DNA from: Nitrospinota bacterium
Lineage (GTDB): Bacteria; UBA8248
Assembly: GCA_030754595.1 (NCBI GenBank)
Contig: JASLZZ010000114.1
Coordinates: forward strand, 1 to 47,312
Length of the DNA: 47,312 nucleotides
Direction: 5' to 3'
In this document: positions 550 to 42,275 of the stretch, piece after piece
Layout: each line of letters begins with the position of its first letter
How positions within the stretch are numbered: the stretch's first letter is position 1
Translations under genes and position numbers: made by a program
The notes under the pieces: model-generated
Told to the model about the DNA's origin: nothing
The model's database searches: none
The model's input: the letters and a program-made list of their open reading frames with translations, nothing else

Positions 550-1524
550 ATGCACGAAAAAAGCGGAGAAAAAGATTCCAGCCAAATTGAGGTTAGCGCC
601 GAGATCGACGGTGTATCGCTCCATCTGAGCCGCCCGGCCGAGGCCGTCAGGGAGTGGATCGGCCAGCGGGAGGCGCTCGATCAGCTCCAGGCTTGTTGGC
701 TGATCATGGCGGAGGAGGATCTTCCCCTCTCGCCCCGGATTACGGGGCCGCCCGGCATCGGCAAGACCACACTCGCCTCGGCCGCCGCCCGCGAGCGGGG
801 CCAGGAACTCTATATCTTCCAGGCGACGGCGGACACGCGACCCGAGGATCTGCTGGTGACGCCGGTCTTGGCCGAGTCGGGCCGGATCGCCTACCACGCC
901 TCCCCGCTGGTGACGGCCATGATCCGAGGCGGCATCTGCGTCATCGACGAGGGCAACCGCATGAGCGAGAAAAGCTGGGCCTCGCTCGCGCCGCTCCTCG
1001 ACCACCGCCGCTACGTTGAGTCCATCGTCGCGGGGACGACCGTCCCGGCCCACGCCGAGTTTCGCTGCTGTGTGACGATGAACGATGACGCCTCGACCTA
1101 CGAGGTGCCCGACTATATCCTCTCGCGCCTCCAGCCGACGCTGCCGATCGAGTTCCCGGACCGCGACGACGAAATGGCCATCCTGAACTACCACCTCCCC
1201 TTCGCGGGCGAGGAGATGCTCGCCATGACGGTGGAATTCCTCCAGGAGGCCCACGGCCTCGACCTCGACTACTCCCCGCGCGACGGCATCCACATCCTCC
1301 AGTACGCCCTGAAGCGGCTCGCGCAGGATCCCGCCCACCCCCTCGGCCGGGACGAGGCCTGGCGCGAGTCGCTCGAGAAGGTCCTGGGCGAGGAGGCCCT
1401 CGACCTGAACGCACTCGCCCGAAGGCGGCGCCAGGCGATGGGCGATGAGCCGCCCCCGATGAACTTCGGGGACATCTTCTTCGGGGATGACAGCCCCCTT
1501 CACCCCGATAGGGGCGATGGCTGA
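550..1524 (+). CDS. MoxR-type AAA+ ATPase
   Basis: Walker A GPPGIGKT, Walker [10 protein letters not shown](R)CCVTMN sensor strand; high-GC3 codon usage. Confidence 0.9.
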
Positions 1525-1527
1525 GCC

Positions 1528-3528
1528 GTGGCCGGCGCTGACTTTCTTTCGATCTCGCCGAGGATCTCCGTCCTCCCGGTGATCCACGGCTCCGGGGATT
1601 TCGCCGTCGAGGTGCGGGACCGCCTCCTGCGCCTCGAGCCTGACTGTCTCGCCCTCCCGTTCCCCCCCTCGTTCCAGGAGGCGGTCGAGGAGGGTGTTCT
1701 CGATCTGCCCGCCATCTCGATCGCCGCCGCCGAGGAGCCCGAGACTTACGGCTCGGGCGGCGGACCCGAAGTGCCCGGGGCATCCGAAGCGCCCGGGGCG
1801 TTCGGCGGAGATGACGCCGCCGAATACGAGGAGAGCGAACCTACCTGGGAGGCCGGGGAGGACAGCGGCCCGGACGGCGAAGGCCCGGCCTTTAACTTCG
1901 TTCCCGTCGATCCCTGCCAGCCCGTCATCGCCGCCCTGAGGACGGCGATGGAGGAGCGCATCCCCCGTGCCTTCGTGGACATCGAGGTCGAATCGTTCCG
2001 CCCCGAGTCCCAAATCCTCCCCGACCCCTACGCGCTGAAAAGAGTCTCGCTCGAGGCCTTCGCCGCCGCCCTGCTCACCTCGGCCCCCCGGCCCGAGCCG
2101 GGCAGCCAGCGCGAGGCCCGCGTCAGGGGGATGGCGGTCCGCCTACGGAGGCTTGAAGGGGAGGGCTACGGGAAAATCGCCTTCGTCTGCGCGGCGGTGG
2201 ACTGGCCCTGGGTGCGCCAAAGCTATCTCGAGGGAGAATCAGGGGCCGCCCCGGTTGGCGTAGCCGATCTCGATGAAGGGATTTTCCCGCCCGCCCCCCG
2301 CCGCTATCCCGTCGAGGCCTCGACGCTCACCTTCGTCCTGGGCGAGCTTCCCTTCATCACCGCCCTCTACGAGCGGCGGCGCGAGGAGCTTCGCGGCGAC
2401 CGCAACCTCTCGATCGACGGGGTGAAGGAGTTGCTCCTCGAGGCTCGCACCGAGTGGCTCCGCGAGTACGAGCCCGTACTCAACTGGGTCACCCCCCAGC
2501 GGCTGCAGATACTTCTCCAGTATGTCCGCAACCTCACCCTCCAGGCGAGCCGCCTCACCCCCGATCTGTTCACCCTCGTCCTCGCCGCCAAGCAGATCGC
2601 CGGCGACGCCTTCGCGCTCACCCTCGCCGAAACGGCCCGGAAGTATCCCTATCAGGAGGAAGATGGCGGCCCCGGTAAAGTGCGCGCCGGTATCGGCGAG
2701 GCCGAATTCCCCGACGGCGGCGTAGGTGAAATCAAGAACCGCCTCGGCGGCTCCGAGGTCGTCTGGCGGCCCATCTCCCTAAAGCCGCGGGCCCCCCAGT
2801 ACAGGAAACGCCAGTGGCGGCAGCGGTGGAACCCGTTCACCCAGTGCTCCTGGCCGCCCGAGGACACCAAGATCGAGAGTTTTCACACTCATGTGCGTGA
2901 TCAGGCGAAGGCCCTCCTCGGCCAGGACCTCGCCCGCAGCGAAAAATTCACCACCTCGATCATGGACGGCCTCGACATCAGGGAGACCCTGCGCAGCTGG
3001 CACACCGGCGATCTCTACGTCAAGGAAATCCCCCCCGCGCGGGGGAATTTGGAGGTCGTCGTCTTCCTGTTCGACACCCCGGCCGACCCGGACAGGTACG
3101 CCTGGCGGACGATGTGGTTCGCCGAGCACGACGAGGAGTCCACCCTCTGCATGTACGCCACCCCCTTCGAGGAGAACGTCATCGGCCCCGGCGTCGCGCA
3201 GTCCACCTACGGCGGGGCGTTTTTCATCTTCCCTCCGCGTTTCATCGACGATGTCTGGCGCGACCCGCGCTTTGATTACGCGAGGACGCTCGAGGAGCGC
3301 CTCATCGCCGGCGCCTGTTTTCACTCGCGCGAGCGCGTCGTCGCCCTCGTCAACCCCGGCCCCCCCCCGGCGAGCTGGCGGCGGATCGCCCGGCTCAACC
3401 GCAAGCATCTGGTCCACATCCCCCTCGGGCGCTTTTCGCGCGAGACCGTCGAGCGCATCCGGCGCTTTCACGTCCTGAACGGCCGGGAGGTCCGCTCCTA
3501 CGCCTCCAGGTTCATTCAGGACGTATGA
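1528..3528 (+). CDS. Large hypothetical protein, probable partner of the MoxR ATPase
   Basis: 666-aa ORF starting 3 nt after the ATPase stop; strong codon bias; acidic low-complexity insert near 1740-1890. Confidence 0.8.
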   Translation: MAGADFLSISPRISVLPVIHGSGDFAVEVRDRLLRLEPDCLALPFPPSFQEAVEEGVLDLPAISIAAAEEPETYGSGGGPEVPGASEAPGAFGGDDAAEYEESEPTWEAGEDSGPDGEGPAFNFVPVDPCQPVIAALRTAMEERIPRAFVDIEVESFRPESQILPDPYALKRVSLEAFAAALLTSAPRPEPGSQREARVRGMAVRLRRLEGEGYGKIAFVCAAVDWPWVRQSYLEGESGAAPVGVADLDEGIFPPAPRRYPVEASTLTFVLGELPFITALYERRREELRGDRNLSIDGVKELLLEARTEWLREYEPVLNWVTPQRLQILLQYVRNLTLQASRLTPDLFTLVLAAKQIAGDAFALTLAETARKYPYQEEDGGPGKVRAGIGEAEFPDGGVGEIKNRLGGSEVVWRPISLKPRAPQYRKRQWRQRWNPFTQCSWPPEDTKIESFHTHVRDQAKALLGQDLARSEKFTTSIMDGLDIRETLRSWHTGDLYVKEIPPARGNLEVVVFLFDTPADPDRYAWRTMWFAEHDEESTLCMYATPFEENVIGPGVAQSTYGGAFFIFPPRFIDDVWRDPRFDYARTLEERLIAGACFHSRERVVALVNPGPPPASWRRIARLNRKHLVHIPLGRFSRETVERIRRFHVLNGREVRSYASRFIQDV

Positions 3529-3541
3529 GGGGCCGCGTCTC

Positions 3542-4003
3542 GTGAAACCGATAGCGCTGGATAACATCTCCGGCCTTAAAAACCGCTTCAACGCGGACCG
3601 GGGCCGCCCGCGCCTGATCGTCATCTTCTCGCCCACCTGAGGCCTCTGCCTCGAGGGCGCCCGTTGGGTTGACCGAAACATCTTGAAAAACGGCGCGGGC
3701 TCTGAACTCAAGGTCTACGCCGTCTGGGTCAGGCGGCTCAAAAGAGACGCCCCGGGCCACATCGACCCCGCCATATTCGGTCACCCGGCGGCGAGCGTAT
3801 TCTGGGACGGGGACCAGATCGCCGGAAAATTTTTCGCCGCCGCCGAGGGGTTTCACTCCCCCGTCGCTTGGGATTCCTATTATCTCTACGGCCCCAAGGT
3901 CCGCTGGCGGGCGATGGCCGCGCCGATCACGGCCTCGGGTTTTCCGGTCATGAATTTCCGGCGGGATTTGAGGCGGTTCGTGCGGGGGATGGCGGAGGGG
4001 TGA
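3542..4003 (+). CDS. Candidate selenoprotein, thioredoxin-like fold (SPT-U-GLC)
   Basis: GTG 3542 with GAGGGG RBS; reads MKPIALDNISGLKNRFNADRGRPRLIVIFSPT[TGA 3638-3640]GLCLEGARW and continues in frame into ORF 3683..4003. Confidence 0.8.
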
Positions 4004-4114
4004 TTAGAGATAGTCAAGAGCTGAGGTGATGCAGTCTGTGATAGAGTGTATCGGTCAAGACTTTTTCGCTTCGATAGATAATCAGGGTGATTGAATTCGA
4101 TAGGAGCTTTTCAA

Positions 4115-4453
4115 ATGACCATAGACGAGTTAACCACCCGGTTTCCGGAGATTCCGGCGGATTTGAAGGATGAACCCCTGCTGGCGGAATTCGCCGAGGC
4201 GTTCGGGCCTCAACTGGCGATAGCCGAAAAGCCCGTCGCCTGCACCGTCGAGCAGTCGGCGGGCAACGCGTTTTACATGAAGCTGATCAACCTGATCGGA
4301 ATCTACGCGATCGGGCTCGCGAAGCGGGAGGCGGTGCTCGGCCAGATACAGGCGCTAGTGGAGGGTTTCAGGGCCGACCCCGAGGGCTATGCCGCCTCGC
4401 TGCTTCCCGGGAGCGTTTCTCCCGTGCAGGTGCGGGGTCACGGCTGCGAATAG
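4115..4453 (+). CDS. Hypothetical protein (112 aa, C-terminal GCE)
   Basis: AGGAG RBS at 4102-4106, ATG 4115, coding-like codon usage, followed by a terminator. Confidence 0.75.
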   Translation: MTIDELTTRFPEIPADLKDEPLLAEFAEAFGPQLAIAEKPVACTVEQSAGNAFYMKLINLIGIYAIGLAKREAVLGQIQALVEGFRADPEGYAASLLPGSVSPVQVRGHGCE

Positions 4454-4467
4454 CAGACGTTTGACTG

Positions 4468-4518
4468 AAAAAAGGGATGGCCTCGGGCTGCCCCTTTTTT
4501 GGGCTGTCCCTTTTTTTT
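4468..4518. terminator. Bidirectional intrinsic terminator
   Basis: A6-GGGATGGCCT...GGGCTGTCCC-T8 stem between convergent genes. Confidence 0.8.
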
Positions 4519-4544
4519 GCGCGGACCCCCGGTCGGGGGCGGAC

Positions 4545-5048
4545 TCAGCCGCCGTAGAAAACGGTGTCGCCCAGATCCTTGAGCCATAGGGTGGCGTCGT
4601 CGGCCCGGCCCTCGGGCTCTGTTCTGACGCCGGCGCCGGTCACCTCGCCGACGAAGATGGAGTGATCTCCGTTCTCGACGGTCTCGGCCAGTTTGCACTC
4701 CACCCAGGCCGAGCAGGAAAGAAGAAGCGGCGCGCCCGCAGGGCCCTTTTCGAAGGCCTCGCCGCCGATGCTGTCGCCATCGCGCTCAAGGGGCTTGAAG
4801 AAGGTGAAGGCCGCGCCCTGCTGGTCCTTGCCGAGGAAGTTGAGGGCGAAGACGCCGGCTTCCTTGATGGTGGCGTGAACGCCTGAGTCGGCCTTCACCC
4901 CGAGGGCGACGAGTGGAGGGGCGAAGGAGGCCTGGGTCGCCCAGTTGACGGTGGCGGCTGCGACGGCGCCATCCCCGCCCTCGGCGGTGAGGACGTAGAG
5001 ACCGTAGGGGATCATCCTGAGAGCGGTTTTCTTCGCGGCATCGTCCAC
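4545..5048 (-). CDS. Flavin reductase family protein
   Basis: IPYGLYVLT, QASFAPPLV, GDHSIFVGEV motifs. Confidence 0.9.
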   Translation of the reverse strand: MDDAAKKTALRMIPYGLYVLTAEGGDGAVAAATVNWATQASFAPPLVALGVKADSGVHATIKEAGVFALNFLGKDQQGAAFTFFKPLERDGDSIGGEAFEKGPAGAPLLLSCSAWVECKLAETVENGDHSIFVGEVTGAGVRTEPEGRADDATLWLKDLGDTVFYGG

Positions 5049-5295
5049 GATTGCGACTCCTCTTTTTCGGTAAAGTGCAGGAAAAATCGAAACCGGATCG
5101 TTTTTTTTGGGGCGGGCCTACGATACCCGTTTTTCGGGCGCCGATCCATTCATCGCGCGCGGGCGCTCCGCGCCGGGACGGAGTAACCCTGTTCGGGCAC
5201 GGATTGCTCCCCCCGGCACGGATTGCCCTGTCAGACAGGCGGTGCGAAAATCCGGGCACGCGAAAATCGCGGGGGAGTTAGAAAGGGGACTTTCG

Positions 5296-6264
5296 GTGGC
5301 CAGAGCGCACGAGATACCAAGACGGCTCCTTGTCGCGGTCGGCGGCAACGCCACTCACCCGCCCGAGATCAAGGGGACGGCCGGGGAGCAGGCGGCCATC
5401 GCCGCTGCGACGGGCAGGGCGCTGCTCCCGCTGATGGCGTGCGACACCGAACTCATCGTCACCCACGGGAACGGCCCGGTGGTCGGGAAGATTCTGATGC
5501 GCCAGGCGCTCTCGGGGGCGCGGGTGACGCCGATGACGCTCGATATATGCGTCGCCCACAGCCAGGGAGGAATTGCCTACTTGCTCATGCAGGCGTTCGA
5601 GAACGCGTTGCGCGAGGCGGGGAACGCGAGGCACGTGGTCTGCCTGCTCACCCAGGTCGAGGTGGACTCCGATGACCCGGCCTTCGGGAATCCCGAGAAG
5701 TTCGTTGGCTACGCCTACAGTGAGGAGGAGGCGCGCGCCTTCGAGCGCGAGATGGGCTGGACGATGCGGGAGGATCCGGGCCGGGGCTGGCGCCATGTGG
5801 TGCCCTCGCCCGAGCCGAGGCACATCGTCGATATTTCGCTGATCCGGGCGCTGGCCGAGCGCGGGGCGGTGGTCATCGCGGGCGGAGGCGGGGGGATTCC
5901 GGTCGCCCGCGAGGGGAGCGGGATGCGCCGCGGGGTCGAGGCGGTGATCGACAAGGACTTGACCTCGGCGCTGATGGCGAACGTCCTGGGGATCGAGGAT
6001 ATGCTGATCCTGACGGCGGTGCCGAGGGTGGCGGTTCATTTCGGGACGCCGGAGCAGCGGCAACTGGACGAGGTTTCGCTCAAGGAGCTGAAAAAATACC
6101 AGGAGGCGGGGCATTTTCCGCCCGGCAGCATGGGCCCCAAGATCGAGGCGGCGATTCGCTTCATCGAGGGCGGGGGCCGGCGGGTCTGGATCACGAATCT
6201 CGAGGAAGCGCTTCCCGCGCTGAGGGGAGAGGCGGGGACGCTGATACATGCGGACGATGGCTGA
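5296..6264 (+). CDS. arcC: Carbamate kinase
   Basis: VAVGGNA, THGNGP, GGGGIPV, GVEAVIDKD, GSMGPK motifs; start placed at GTG 5296 after AAGGGG. Confidence 0.93.
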   Translation: MARAHEIPRRLLVAVGGNATHPPEIKGTAGEQAAIAAATGRALLPLMACDTELIVTHGNGPVVGKILMRQALSGARVTPMTLDICVAHSQGGIAYLLMQAFENALREAGNARHVVCLLTQVEVDSDDPAFGNPEKFVGYAYSEEEARAFEREMGWTMREDPGRGWRHVVPSPEPRHIVDISLIRALAERGAVVIAGGGGGIPVAREGSGMRRGVEAVIDKDLTSALMANVLGIEDMLILTAVPRVAVHFGTPEQRQLDEVSLKELKKYQEAGHFPPGSMGPKIEAAIRFIEGGGRRVWITNLEEALPALRGEAGTLIHADDG

Positions 6265-7399
6265 GATAAAAAGCGCGGAGCCGGGAGTCACGGGCCCGGC
6301 CTGTGTTCCGGAGTCCTATACTTTTCCGGTGACTCTGATGGGCGGGGGCGCCCGGAGGGCGCTCGGGCTGGTATCCAGTACAGCCAGTGCGGCTGGCGCG
6401 GCCGGCATCGAGGGCCGGGTGCTCGCGGTGTTTCGCCGGAGCTTTTATCTGGAGATGGGCGGAGGGAGCGCGGGTAAAGAAGGCGCTCTTGTCTGCATGG
6501 GGCCGGCCTGGATCGGGCCGGGGCCGCTGAACGCGATCTGCGCGCTGCCGGAGGGAATGGACTGGCGGGCGTCGGGTCTCGCGGAGGGGGGCCGGGCGAG
6601 TTGTTGGAGAGAGCTCCTCTGCGCCGGGCAGTTTTCGTTTTCGTGCGCGGGGGCGGCTAACTGGCGGCCTGCGCCGCCGGGCCTGGATTTCGACAATGCT
6701 CCTGCGATTCGGGCGGCGCTAGAGGCGATGGCCCGGAAGGGCGGGTGCCTTGCGCCCGAGGAAGGGCTGGGGCGGCTGATCCCGGCGCTGGCGCGTGGCG
6801 AACCGGCGCGGTGCGAACCGGACGCCCTGGATAGGCGCGGCGGGAAGGACCAGGTAATGCGGTCTGGATCGCGGGGGGCCGGGGCGCTGATGCGATGGAT
6901 TCGCGAGATGGTGCGGGCCGAGTTGTCCCTGTTCGAGACGGCGCCGACCGGGTTGTCCCTGTCCGAGCCACCGGAAGCGGCGGCGGGGCTCATCGGCCTG
7001 GGGCCGGGACTCACGCCTTCGGGGGATGACTTCATCGGCGGGGCGATGATCGCGCTCAGGACGATGGGGCGCGGGCGGGAGGCAGACCGGCTGGCTGCCT
7101 GGGCGCTTCCCCTTGCCGAGAGCGGCACCGGCCGCATCAGCCGGGCGCATCTCGAGTGCGCCGCGCGGGGAGAGGGCGCGGGGGCGCTCCACCGGGTCAT
7201 GGAGACGATCCCGGGGATGTCCCTCCGCACCGGGGGAGACATCGCGGCCTCACTCGCCGCCATCGACGCTGTCGGCCACACCTCGGGGTGGGACGCCCTG
7301 GCGGGAGTGGTAGGCGCGATAGCCGCCGTTTGCGGCGATTTCTCTCAATACGATGATCGGGAAAAGAACGGCGTTCGGGATAAGGAGCAAGAGTGGTGA
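6257..7399 (+). CDS. DUF2877 (YlbF/AllH-like) protein
   Basis: GLGPGLTPSGDD and GHTSG motifs; overlaps the carbamate kinase stop. Confidence 0.85.
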   Translation: MAEIKSAEPGVTGPACVPESYTFPVTLMGGGARRALGLVSSTASAAGAAGIEGRVLAVFRRSFYLEMGGGSAGKEGALVCMGPAWIGPGPLNAICALPEGMDWRASGLAEGGRASCWRELLCAGQFSFSCAGAANWRPAPPGLDFDNAPAIRAALEAMARKGGCLAPEEGLGRLIPALARGEPARCEPDALDRRGGKDQVMRSGSRGAGALMRWIREMVRAELSLFETAPTGLSLSEPPEAAAGLIGLGPGLTPSGDDFIGGAMIALRTMGRGREADRLAAWALPLAESGTGRISRAHLECAARGEGAGALHRVMETIPGMSLRTGGDIAASLAAIDAVGHTSGWDALAGVVGAIAAVCGDFSQYDDREKNGVRDKEQEW

Positions 7400-12427: not shown

Positions 12428-14491
12428 TTGGGGTCCAAATTGAACGCGGTCATTTCAAAAAAATTATTGCAGTGGATTCCGCCGGCCATCCCTTTGGTTT
12501 TTTTGATATTTTCTCCCGGAGAGGCCCTGGGCGGCGGAGGTTTAATACCCCTCTTACATCTATTTCATTTACTCATGGCCGGAGCGGCTGTTTATCTATT
12601 GTTTCTGATCGGCCATATGGCGTTGGACCGAGCGGGATTGCTTCCCGGCGATTATTTTGAGCGGATACTTCTCGCGATATGTACGGGTTTTTTCGTTCTT
12701 GGGGTTTCTCTTTTTTTATTGGCCTCGGCGGGAGCGCTCCGCCCATGGATTGTGTGGCCGCTGGCGGTCCTCGCCGGTTGGTTTTCGAAAAGATCGTCGG
12801 TCGATGAATTTATCGCTTCCGACCGGGCGGATAGATGGAAATGGGAAAAGGGCCCGGTCCGGGCCGCCGCCATCGGCCTTGGAGTGTTATTCGTCCTGCT
12901 CTTCGGGGGGTCTTTACTCGAAGCGCTCATTCCGTCTCCTCATTCGCCCGATGCCCTGGCGCACAACCTCGCTTACGCCAGGCTGTTCGCCGAATCCGGG
13001 GGCTTGGTGTTCACGACCCACAGCCCCTTGTTTTTTGCCATCACCGGGTACTGGGAATTTTTTCTTGCCAGCGTTGCCTTGTTCGTTCCCTCGGACGTCT
13101 CGATGTTGGTGCTTGCCCAGCTCTTTCACCTGATATTGGGGCTCGGGGGCACGGCCTTGGGGATCGTCTGTCTCGTTCGGAGGCTTTCGCACCTCGACAA
13201 CCGGGAGGCATTGGCGTTCGGAATCTTCGGTGCGGTGCTTTTCGCGGGGATGCGAATCGACGTTTTTCACGTCAGGCGGTTTCCGCTGCTCATCGTTGCC
13301 CCCAAGTCGGATCTGTTTATCGTGGCCCTACAGGCGGCCGGGGCGCTGGCGTTTTTCGAATCGATGCGGATCCGGGCGACCGGCGCGGGGTGGGCCCTTC
13401 TGGGTGGATTGCTGCTCGGTGCGGCCTCGGGGGTCAAACTGACGGCCGGTCTGGCCTCCGTGGCCCTGGGGGTCGCCTTCATGATTTATCCGCCCGAGGC
13501 CGTTTCGCTCCGGAAGCGGGCCTCGCTGGCCGGTTGGGCGGCGGCCGGGCTCGCTATCGGACTCGCGCCCATGTTGGCGAAAAACGCCCTTGCCCTCGGG
13601 AACCCGATCTATCCCATGATGACCTCGTATTTCGGGACATATGAGAATCCCGAATATCTCCGGTATGTCATTTCCGGGTTCAGGGACACGCGCGGTTCTT
13701 GGCTCGACACGGGGTGGCGGCTATCCAGGCTCATCGCGCCCTCGGCGGCATTTGCGACCCTTCTGGCGGGTTTCTGGCCGGGGATGGCCCCGCGAGGAGC
13801 GTTGGCGCTATTTCTTGCCGTTCCTGTATCGATAGCGGTTTCGGTGGCGGTGTTTTCGGGGACCTTTCCGACGCGCTACGCCCTGTTCATCACCGCCTTC
13901 GCGGCCGCCTGCGCCGCCTGTCTCGCGGGCGCCCTCATCGATCGCCTTCGGGCGCGATTGGAGAGCGTGGGAGATTTTCCCACCCGCCGCGCGCTGCCGG
14001 CGGCATGGATTCTCCTTTTCACGCTCGCCGCCCTCCCCACGCATCTGGACAATCGCCTCAAGCGCGCGTTCAGAACCGCCGGAAAAACGACCATTCTCCG
14101 CGAGCGGGTGTACCGCATGAATCCGGTCTCGCGCTTTCAGGCCGGATGGAAGGGCCGCCTTCCGGAGGGGGCGAGGCCGATGACCTTCTACCGGCCCGAG
14201 CGGCTTTTTGCCGTGACCCGGGGATGGCTCCCGGTGGTTGCTGTCGAGAGTCCCTCGTTGGCGGCCCTGTTCCTGCGCGAGTCCGATGGCCCGGAGATTG
14301 AAAGGGCGCTCTTTAAGAGGGGGATCACCCACGTCTACTTCGGATCGCCGCTCGTCCCGCCGGGGTTTCCGCTGGACGCCCGGCCGCTTGCCTCTCATCT
14401 GCGAAACCGCCCGCCGCTCTGGCGGGAAAGTGGAATCGAGATGTACGCCCTGTCCTCCGGAAAAATGAGAAAGGGAATAGAAGGAAGGTAA
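12428..14491 (+). CDS. Polytopic membrane protein, probably GT-C-like glycosyltransferase
   Basis: Many hydrophobic segments, D..AH.L..A loop motif, GVK, GNPIYP and RY motifs; adjacent to GT2. Confidence 0.65.
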   Translation: MGSKLNAVISKKLLQWIPPAIPLVFLIFSPGEALGGGGLIPLLHLFHLLMAGAAVYLLFLIGHMALDRAGLLPGDYFERILLAICTGFFVLGVSLFLLASAGALRPWIVWPLAVLAGWFSKRSSVDEFIASDRADRWKWEKGPVRAAAIGLGVLFVLLFGGSLLEALIPSPHSPDALAHNLAYARLFAESGGLVFTTHSPLFFAITGYWEFFLASVALFVPSDVSMLVLAQLFHLILGLGGTALGIVCLVRRLSHLDNREALAFGIFGAVLFAGMRIDVFHVRRFPLLIVAPKSDLFIVALQAAGALAFFESMRIRATGAGWALLGGLLLGAASGVKLTAGLASVALGVAFMIYPPEAVSLRKRASLAGWAAAGLAIGLAPMLAKNALALGNPIYPMMTSYFGTYENPEYLRYVISGFRDTRGSWLDTGWRLSRLIAPSAAFATLLAGFWPGMAPRGALALFLAVPVSIAVSVAVFSGTFPTRYALFITAFAAACAACLAGALIDRLRARLESVGDFPTRRALPAAWILLFTLAALPTHLDNRLKRAFRTAGKTTILRERVYRMNPVSRFQAGWKGRLPEGARPMTFYRPERLFAVTRGWLPVVAVESPSLAALFLRESDGPEIERALFKRGITHVYFGSPLVPPGFPLDARPLASHLRNRPPLWRESGIEMYALSSGKMRKGIEGR

Positions 14492-40708: not shown

Positions 40709-42275
40709 TCAGTCGACTTGGCCTTCGCCTATGAAAATAAAGGAATTATCCCCCTCGGCCGGGGGCGCTTCGGCCTTCTCTTCGGCGGGGGGCGCTTCCT
40801 CCTTAACATCAGGAGGAGTCTCCTTGTCTTCGGGGGATTTCTCCTCGGGCTCTCCTGATTGATCGAGATCGAAATTTTCGCCTTCCCCGGTGGGAGCTTG
40901 CCCAGCGGCGGGTTCCGCCTCGGGCGCGGGTTTGGCGCCGGGGGCATCCCCTGTTTCTTTTTCGGCCCCGGATGGTCCTTCCCTTGATTCGGGGCGTTCT
41001 TCTTTATCATCGGAGGTGGCTTCAGGGGAGAGTTCTCCGGGCTCTTCCGGTTTTTCATTCCCACGGCCGGGACGCTCCTCCTCCGAGACACTTTCCTCGG
41101 TTTCGGGCTGCTCCGGCCGGGGCTCGGGATTTTTCTCCTCGTCCTCGAGAATCTCCCTTATGGACTGTTCTATTCTGGCCTTATCGGAGATCTCTTTCGC
41201 TGCCTCTTCTTTGGCTGCCCTCTCTGCAGCCGCCTTCCTCTGGCCTCTTCTTCGGCTGCCCTCTCTGCAGCCGCCTTCCTCTGGGCTTCTTCCTCGGCGG
41301 CCCTCTCGGTGAGGACCTTTTCGACGGGAATCTCCATTGGCGTCTCGATTTGTTTCTCCACCACGGGCTCGCCGGTCGCTTTCTCGGTCTCGATCTCCCC
41401 GGTGGGTTTCTCGGGAGAAATTTCGGTTCTTGCGGAATGGTCTTCGGGAAGGCCAATGCTCTCCTTGGTGACCTCTGTTTTCTCACCGCTTTCCCGGCCG
41501 CCTTGGGGGGAGGTGCTCTCCCGGGGTTCCTCCGGTTTCTCGGTTTCCGCCGGAGAAGCCTTCGGGCCCTCTTTTTCCGGCTTGGCGGTTCTCGCACCTT
41601 CCTCCAGTGTTTCGGATGTGGGCTCGGGTTTTTGCCCGTATTTCCGCTCGGGTTCTTTTTCGGCCGGGCCGGGCGCTTTCACCTCGGGAGAGGAAGTTTT
41701 CTCCACTGGTGGTTTGGCCTCGGAAGGTGATTCCCGTTCTCCGATTATTATTTTCGCATCGACGCCGGCGGGCGATTCCTTTTTCATCAAAAATTCCATG
41801 AGGGCCTTCTCCGTTTCGCTCTCCTTCGATTCTCCTTCTTCCTCCGGAGGAGGGGGTACGAGGGCGTTCGTGATCACATAGACGATCAGGCCGTCCTTCG
41901 CCTGGGCCTTGACGAGGCTCGAGTCCTTCGTGATCCGGACGAGTTGGCCTTCCACCGATTCGACGGTGGGAATCTTTCCCTGGATCAGAGTCTTGAGGGA
42001 CATATGGAGCAATTTTTGCGGTTGCATTTGCAAATGAGAACTTTGTTCCGGATGTCGTCCCCTACTTTCTCGCCCGAGATTTTTCCCTTGAGAAAGAGAT
42101 CGAGCAATTCGATGATTTGCTTGGCTCCGGTTTCTATCAGGCAGAAAAACGTGAAACTGTCTTTCCGGACCTCTCCGTGTTTGTAGGGGCGAAAATCGAG
42201 GGTCCTGGAGTGGCTTTTCGCGGGAAGGAGCAGCAATAGAGTCAGGATGGCTGTAAAAACGATTGCCCGTTTCAT
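40709..42275 (-). pseudogene. Exported protein with long Glu/Pro/Lys-rich tail, split by two frameshifts
   Basis: Signal peptide MKRAIVF...SHS; frame changes at about 42013-42017 and 41242; restored frame ends FIFIGEGQVD-TGA at 40709. Confidence 0.7.
41205..41308 (-). repeat. 42-bp tandem repeat (about 2.5 copies) encoding ERAAEEEAQRKAAA
   Basis: GGCTGCCCTCTCTGCAGCCGCCTTCCTCTGG at 41213 and 41254 (spacing 41, one base short). Confidence 0.9.

Follow-up and report, generated by a model that had tools for sequence, protein, structure and literature searches.

A probable selenoprotein gene of an unnamed thioredoxin-fold family beside a conserved MoxR-class ATPase gene pair in a Nitrospinota genome

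Three co-oriented genes and the question they raise

Contig JASLZZ010000114.1 of a Nitrospinota bacterium carries, within the 47 312 nt stretch analysed here (the window, to which all numbering refers), three genes in a row on the plus strand: gene 1 (550–1524), encoding a MoxR-class ATPase, gene 2 (1528–3528), encoding a large protein, and gene 3 (3542–4003), which contains an in-frame TGA. An initial annotation had described three co-oriented genes with gaps of 3 nt (1525–1527) and 13 nt (3529–3541), and the list of open reading frames (ORFs) and the sequence bear this operon-like layout out. The annotation had gone further and suggested that the genes may form a chaperone or remodelling module linked to a selenium redox enzyme, with gene 3 encoding a thioredoxin-like protein that contains selenocysteine (Sec). 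The locus raises the questions of whether gene 3 encodes a real selenoprotein, and whether it belongs to the system formed by genes 1 and 2.

We consider it likely that gene 3 encodes a real selenoprotein and is lineage-specific cargo beside a conserved ATPase pair, rather than a dedicated component of it. A genome scan for gene 2 returned 599 stretches, of which 581 were confirmed, in records from at least seven phyla (Nitrospinota, Tectomicrobia, Latescibacterota, Planctomycetota, Gemmatimonadota, Omnitrophota and Eiseniibacteriota), and the neighbourhoods were scored in the 80 loci that were kept. Gene 1 was found 5′ of gene 2 in 62 of these 80 loci, within 300 nt in 43, and its homologues there share 63–98 % identity; of the 18 loci where it was not found, seven have less than 1.8 kb of upstream sequence. 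Among the 80 loci, gene 3 adjoins gene 2 in two, L023 and L024, which come from the window's genus. Within the phylum, five of 51 genomes contain gene 3, and it lies near the pair solely in the window's genus and close relatives. As gene 3 is rarely near gene 2 in other genomes, the outcome that the initial annotation itself had named as speaking against its proposal, the three-gene module is not supported; in G004, also from the window's genus, gene 2 is present and gene 3 absent.

The in-frame TGA of gene 3 very probably encodes selenocysteine

Under translation table 11, all that is left of gene 3 is a 106 aa remainder (3683–4003). As had been recognized in the initial annotation, the whole gene appears solely by reading through the TGA at 3638–3640. 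The frame opens with a GTG (3542–3544) and closes with the stop codon at 4001–4003, and with the TGA read as Sec it forms a single frame of 153 residues (3542–4000) carrying the motif SPT-U-GL-C at residues 30–36, with Sec as residue 33. The closest relatives recovered by protein search, seven in number, are all 106–117 aa long and cover the post-TGA part alone, as is typical when a Sec codon has been missed. These same public calls could also be taken to mean that the TGA is a true stop, such that the 106 aa ORF at 3683–4003 (or nothing) is expressed and the 32 codons upstream are non-coding or decayed. That explanation appears extremely improbable when set against the conservation described below.

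Gene 3 turned up in five of 61 genomes searched in six frames, and both the position of the TGA and the 32 codons preceding it are conserved in G001, G002 (where the copy is split across two contig ends) and G003. When the window's own genome (G000) was compared with G003, the ratio of nonsynonymous to synonymous change (pN/pS) was 0.35 for codons 1–32 and 0.31 for codons 34–153. Similar values on both sides of the TGA indicate a single coding unit and place the first 32 codons under the same purifying selection as the rest, contrary to what a true stop would predict. A metagenome scan, using search patterns from which the Sec column was excluded, recovered 29 gene 3 loci, though these include two duplicates, one locus from the window's own organism (L114) and one corresponding to G003 (L115), so that the independent count is lower. 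The motif codon is TGA in 26 of the 27 loci where it can be read and TGG in the other, and relatives sharing 32–45 % identity are among those with TGA, whereas a decayed gene would drift.

The homologues with a standard amino acid at this position point the same way. In 11 distant full-length homologues the Sec column holds Cys in nine, Gly in one and Ser in one, and the N-terminal part aligns with full-length Cys homologues down to 25–36 % identity. Cys36 is invariant in all 14 rows of the alignment. The motif is present in 35 of the 149 best representatives (Cys in 30, Ser in two, Trp in two and Gly in one), while the remaining 114 start 3′ of the motif and have no N-terminal part, as is expected of ORFs cut at a TGA. 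Loss of the N-terminal strand and the redox motif would also leave the modelled fold incomplete.

The genome has a complete Sec machinery, with scores for selB (364.5 bits), tRNA-Sec (73.6), selA (551.8) and selD (345) that are all above the cut-offs, and the tRNA-Sec has the anticodon TCA. In addition, selD carries an in-frame TGA of its own (L166; G000, contig C16, 24543–25505). With the TGA conserved, Cys homologues present and the machinery in place, the hidden Sec codon proposed in the initial annotation is borne out, and gene 3 very probably does encode a selenoprotein.

The true-stop explanation could further draw on the weakness of the hairpin that follows the TGA in the window and on pseudogene copies of gene 3 in L116–L118, both considered below, as well as on a TAA in genome G042. 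There, a distant homologue (L021, 1486–1923; contig C6, plus strand; 27 % identity) has TAA at the Sec column (SPT-TAA-PVC) and a frame that is conserved on both sides. Recoding of this TAA was ruled out, as the tRNA-Sec of G042 has the normal TCA anticodon, and the codon probably reflects a pseudogene or a base or sequencing error.

A hairpin resembling a selenocysteine insertion sequence (SECIS) was found at 3657–3671 on the plus strand. In an alignment of 24 sequences it consists of a stem of 5–6 bp and a three-base loop, G-K-Y, starting 17 nt past the TGA, with the loop 23–25 nt past it; a bacterial SECIS is expected approximately 16–37 nt from the UGA and to have G in its apical loop. The cells of the hairpin are paired in 93.5 % of cases, versus 31–60 % with the partner columns slid. 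The pair at 21–33 changes from CG to UA in three sequences, probably in a single event, and one GU pair changes to AU in two. The same stretch also encodes the conserved residues G-A-R-W-V, and a search of Rfam over 3400–4200 found no SECIS and no other family. The hairpin thus gives modest support for a SECIS role. The TGA in selD of the window's genome precedes a similar hairpin, with five pairs and a GGA loop at the tip of a long stem. A different hairpin that contains the UGA itself (3638–3653) was rejected as a SECIS, having a z-score of only −1.44 and not being conserved in G003.

Gene 3 belongs to an unnamed family with a predicted thioredoxin-like fold

A profile search of 1.84 billion representatives (clusters at 50 % identity) produced 1513 matches to gene 3 at E≤1e-3 and 436 at E≤1e-10. 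Conserved motifs of the family are SPT-(U/C)-xx-C, FNxDxGxPR and AWDxYYLY. When gene 3 and eight of its Cys homologues were searched against Pfam and NCBIfam, no match was obtained even at E≤1. An AlphaFold2 model places a strand at residues 24–29, then U33, and a helix at residues 34–48, and is too uncertain at residues 106–109 and 124–147 for the cis-proline loop to be placed. Nearly all of the Foldseek matches listed for this model are thioredoxin-fold proteins (TlpA, ResA, DsbE, CcmG, Sco and glutathione peroxidases), the best with an E value of 2.4e-4 and with template modelling (TM) scores of 0.38–0.55. The thioredoxin-like label given in the initial annotation therefore holds at the level of fold and motif, through UxxC and the Foldseek matches, and does not extend to a named family.

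Many of the distant relatives have a signal peptide, a lipobox or a membrane anchor, and the protein in the window has none of these. The product of gene 3 is very probably a selenoprotein of the cytoplasm, belonging to a thioredoxin-fold family that has no name, and proteins with SPT-(U/C)-xx-C seem to make up a large thioredoxin-fold family that is used mostly in the Sec form. Sec33, at the start of helix 1, would attack a disulfide or a thiol-bound substrate, after which the intermediate would be resolved by Cys36 as a selenenylsulfide; UxxC thiol:disulfide oxidoreductases work in this way.

In four soil loci (L119, L120, L121 and L133, e.g. L133 at 659–4426), distant membrane-anchored Sec homologues were found in a common cluster together with genes for a MerR regulator, a second, TGA-bearing paralogue, a zf_CopZ protein, a tautomerase and a pyridine nucleotide-disulfide oxidoreductase. 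This cluster, which would encode two selenoproteins of one family, is possibly an operon for metal or thiol stress. The four loci are close kin and amount to roughly one observation.

Genes 1 and 2 form a conserved pair

Gene 1 starts with ATG and encodes a 324 aa protein that matches AAA_5 (3.2e-18; 66.5 bits, cut-off 22) and AAA_3 (1.1e-7; 32.2 bits, cut-off 27) in Pfam, in agreement with its initial description as a MoxR AAA+ ATPase. The closest solved chains are those of midasin (2e-22), a CbbQ/NirQ/NorQ domain protein (6.5e-9) and NorQ (2.1e-8), and the Walker A (G66–T73) and Walker B (D133–E134) motifs are invariant in 16 homologues. The protein scores far under all NCBIfam equivalog cut-offs, for example 32.3 bits against 266.8 for GvpN, and it is best described as a MoxR-class, CbbQ/NorQ/midasin-like AAA_5 ATPase.

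Gene 2 starts with GTG, ends with TGA (3526–3528) and encodes a 666 aa protein of no named family. It has 2894 relatives at E≤1e-3, all unnamed. Proteins of this kind are 620–690 aa long, and gene 2 is 47–93 % identical across phyla. No match to gene 2 was found in Pfam or NCBIfam, and none of 16 family members matches Pfam. MoxR ATPases normally act with VWA proteins, a pairing which the initial annotation had noted; no VWA match was found in Pfam for gene 2 (0 of 16 members), gene 3 or ORF4, the gene that follows gene 3. Three cysteines of gene 2 (C40, C130 and C440) are invariant.

No sequence relative of gene 2 was found among solved structures, and Foldseek gave no match at E≤0.001 for its model, which has a mean predicted local distance difference test (pLDDT) value of 66.1. 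The structural comparison covers mainly residues 3–378. Using VIA-align, residues approximately 1–240 were superposed on ChaN (2g5g; Z 8.7, root-mean-square deviation 4.3, 141 residues aligned), HopBA1 (5t09; Z 7.4, root-mean-square deviation 3.7, 142 residues aligned), BcR135 (Z 7.3) and EreC (6xcq; Z 7.1). There is no match to the ChaN/EreA/HopBA1 fold at the sequence level, and no fold is assigned to residues approximately 250–666. A search of a protein atlas led from gene 2 to a cluster in which 18 % of the members have DUF5682, and an hhalign comparison with the DUF5682 profile aligned 174 N-terminal columns at E 0.0046 and a probability of just 7.6 %. The N-terminal domain may be ChaN/EreA-like and is only faintly DUF5682-like. 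Assignment of gene 2 to DUF5682 (PF18934) itself was rejected, as the hidden Markov model (HMM) matches none of the 16 members at E≤10; its single weak match in the window's own genome is on another contig.

The initial annotation had suggested structure prediction of the pairwise complexes, and this predicts that the products of genes 1 and 2 bind one another. The complex scored 0.70 (runs of 0.74, 0.69 and 0.70) versus 0.00 for the best control, with at least 73 % of contacts agreeing between runs and a partner pLDDT of at least 74. A total of 116 of 157 solved complexes came up to this mark, as did 2 of 215 mismatched pairs; the calibration holds only roughly here, since our own alignments were used. 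The predicted contact involves the N-terminal helix (41–60), residues 188–199 and the C-terminal tail (301–320) of the ATPase and the central helical part of gene 2 (approximately 265–420). The ATPase would remodel or activate its partner. Where other genes lie between genes 1 and 2 at other loci, they are heterogeneous. We conclude that genes 1 and 2 together make up a conserved MoxR-class unit of two genes with no detectable VWA partner.

Gene 3 lies in a variable slot beside the pair

The segment 3′ of gene 2 differs between relatives. In the window, gene 3 is followed by ORF4 (4115–4453, plus strand), which encodes a 112 aa protein of no family and has AGGAG 9 nt 5′ of its ATG. In G001, a 253 aa gene stands between gene 3 and ORF4. 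In G002, G003, L116 and L118, a DinB/MDMPI-like gene precedes gene 3, which is again followed by ORF4. In G004, ORF4 follows gene 2 after 345 nt with no gene 3, and in loci of the sister genus (L026–L035) it follows after approximately 130 nt. In L025 the slot is occupied by a TPR-methyltransferase gene, and in L034 by a small ORF whose weak CMD match falls below the Pfam cut-off. By tblastn, ORF4 itself was found 3′ of gene 2 in G003 (L019), in G004 (L143) and in 11 of the 80 loci. Gene 3 would thus be cargo, and the variable slot that holds it is bounded by gene 2 and the conserved ORF4. ORF4 has no match in Pfam; its product ends in G-x-G-C-E/G, and it is a neighbour of gene 2 in this phylum alone.

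The opposite explanation, that the three genes, at least within this genus, are one module whose AAA-partner machine has the Sec protein as its redox accessory, its substrate or its regulator, appears quite improbable. Co-orientation, the two short gaps and the lack of any terminator-like site between the genes are what such a module would show; gene 3 has been kept near gene 2 in G000, G001, G002 and G003, and C40, C130 and C440 of gene 2 could be redox targets. However, the adjacency in two of 80 loci is confined to the window's genus, another gene intervenes in G002, G003, L116 and L118, G004 has gene 2 without gene 3, and G042 has a gene-3-like ORF, with gene 2 not found by the query used. 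Neither gene 1 nor gene 2 was found at any of the eight distant gene 3 loci that have at least 1.5 kb of upstream sequence. Finally, gene 3 is a pseudogene in L116 (1563–2015), L117 and L118 (4001–4449), with TGA at W42 and TAG at W88, and the copy in L118 is also frameshifted, whereas genes 1 and 2 of L118 are intact.

The DinB-like gene offers another possible partner. It contains DinB/MDMPI_N and SCP2 (Pfam 3.5e-16) and lies directly 5′ of gene 3 in G002, G003, L116 and L118. Gene 3 and this gene, encoding a DinB/MDMPI-like thiol-dependent enzyme, may have arrived as two-gene redox cargo, with the DinB-like gene later lost in the lineage of the window and in G001, leaving gene 3 as a free-standing reductase. 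The presence of distant relatives of gene 3 in thiol or metal stress clusters with MerR, a Sec paralogue, zf_CopZ and a disulfide oxidoreductase would be in keeping with this, but the four loci concerned count as approximately one observation, and the window and G001 have no DinB-like gene at the site. We regard this history as unlikely, though less so than a three-gene module.

Gene 3 is probably co-transcribed with the pair in the window's genome, because the gap to gene 2 is 13 nt and no terminator is present. A Shine-Dalgarno-like run, GAGGGG (3527–3532, plus strand), lies 9 nt 5′ of the GTG of gene 3 and overlaps the stop codon of gene 2. No terminator- or promoter-like site was found in the gap between genes 2 and 3, and no terminator-like site between genes 1, 2, 3 and ORF4. 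The first such site outside any gene past the gene row, a terminator-like hairpin followed by a T run, is at 4478–4500 on the plus strand. Metatranscriptome contigs from four runs cover 2800–3207 and 4189–4526 alone and so are uninformative on gene 3 and the junctions.

Several of these results weigh against our preferred reading of a real thioredoxin-fold selenoprotein carried as cargo beside a conserved pair. The 13 nt gap, the Shine-Dalgarno-like site and the absence of a terminator-like site before 4478 fit co-expression, and this layout is compatible with a functional link between gene 3 and the pair in the window's genus. The hairpin in the window is the weakest in the family, with four of six pairs formed (3659–3662 with 3666–3669). 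For the fold of gene 3, the thioredoxin-superfamily HMMs in Pfam and NCBIfam do not match, a profile search of solved structures returned nothing significant (E 0.2–1.3 for the thioredoxin and glutaredoxin rows), and the pLDDT of the model is low, at 58.1. On the side of the pair, the binding of genes 1 and 2 is a predicted one, expressed as a model score, and the Z scores for the fold of gene 2 (7–10) are middling and may reflect a common arrangement alone.

Comparison with known systems

Gene 3 joins the well-known UxxC thioredoxin-fold selenoproteins as a new member, sharing with them a thioredoxin-like topology, U/CxxC where helix 1 begins, following strand 1, and the occurrence of Sec and Cys forms in one family. 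TlpA, ResA, DsbE and CcmG are structurally closest. TlpA and ResA are membrane-anchored or lipoproteins, as are many relatives of gene 3, whereas the protein of the window is unanchored. A 2026 review of prokaryotic selenoproteomes gives, in the parts accessible to us, a PF, NF, TIGR, cd or PTHR identifier for each family, and gene 3 matches none of those defined by Pfam or NCBIfam, the comparison being confined to such families and leaving entries defined by cd02966 outside it. As far as checked, the family is absent from Pfam, NCBIfam and the published list of prokaryotic families. According to the accessible parts of BSepDB, that database holds 111 bacterial selenoprotein families and subfamilies, and metagenome-assembled genomes titled Nitrospinota are among the genomes richest in selenoprotein genes, with 48–54 each (54 in the record of L025); the comparison with BSepDB was made apart from its family list (Table S2), which may bear on novelty. 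On this partial view of the catalogue, the gene 3 family would add one to the approximately 111 families and subfamilies listed. Gene callers miss gene 3, and a family model would correct many annotations.

MoxR ATPases usually have VWA cofactors as partners and are divided into seven subfamilies that include CGN and YehL (PMC3893208). Like gene 1, the CGN-type members (CbbQ, NorQ), which are its closest solved bacterial chains, have a single AAA_5 module of approximately 320 aa that contains the Walker A and B motifs, and a large partner encoded directly 3′, the binding of which is predicted in our case. They differ in having VWA cofactors, while gene 2 shows no match to VWA or to a metal ion-dependent adhesion site (MIDAS). 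A second resemblance is to the AAA_5–DUF5682–VWA_CoxE triads (for example locus L148 in G054), in which an AAA_5 ATPase is likewise followed by a protein of 660–760 aa that shares the motifs H-x-S, P-x-x-h-h and R-x-x-M with the N-terminus of gene 2. The triad ends in VWA_CoxE, whereas no VWA_CoxE gene follows gene 2. We take the yehL operon of Escherichia coli to be of this kind. A search by name found no literature on DUF5682, and none was found on the AAA_5-partner pair in the searches made.

The pair is a clean target for studying how a MoxR-class ATPase acts without a VWA cofactor. Both units would be new kinds of known things that have been joined in the window's genus. That the selenoprotein has been recruited there as a selenium-dependent redox accessory of a MoxR-class complex that lacks VWA is an idea we hold to be very doubtful.

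Neighbouring features

Upstream of gene 1, a 143 aa ORF at 101–532 has no match in Pfam or NCBIfam. The G+C content of the first 1000 nt of the window is 0.52, compared with 0.62–0.69 over the next 7 kb. Beyond ORF4, a flavin reductase-like gene is found at 4545–5048 on the minus strand, followed by a carbamate-kinase-like AA_kinase gene (5107–6264) and a gene encoding an AllH-domain protein (6248–7399) that is syntenic with the sister genus. In the composition profile, AT skew is strongly negative at 13001–14000 (−0.38) and at 41001–42000 (−0.49).

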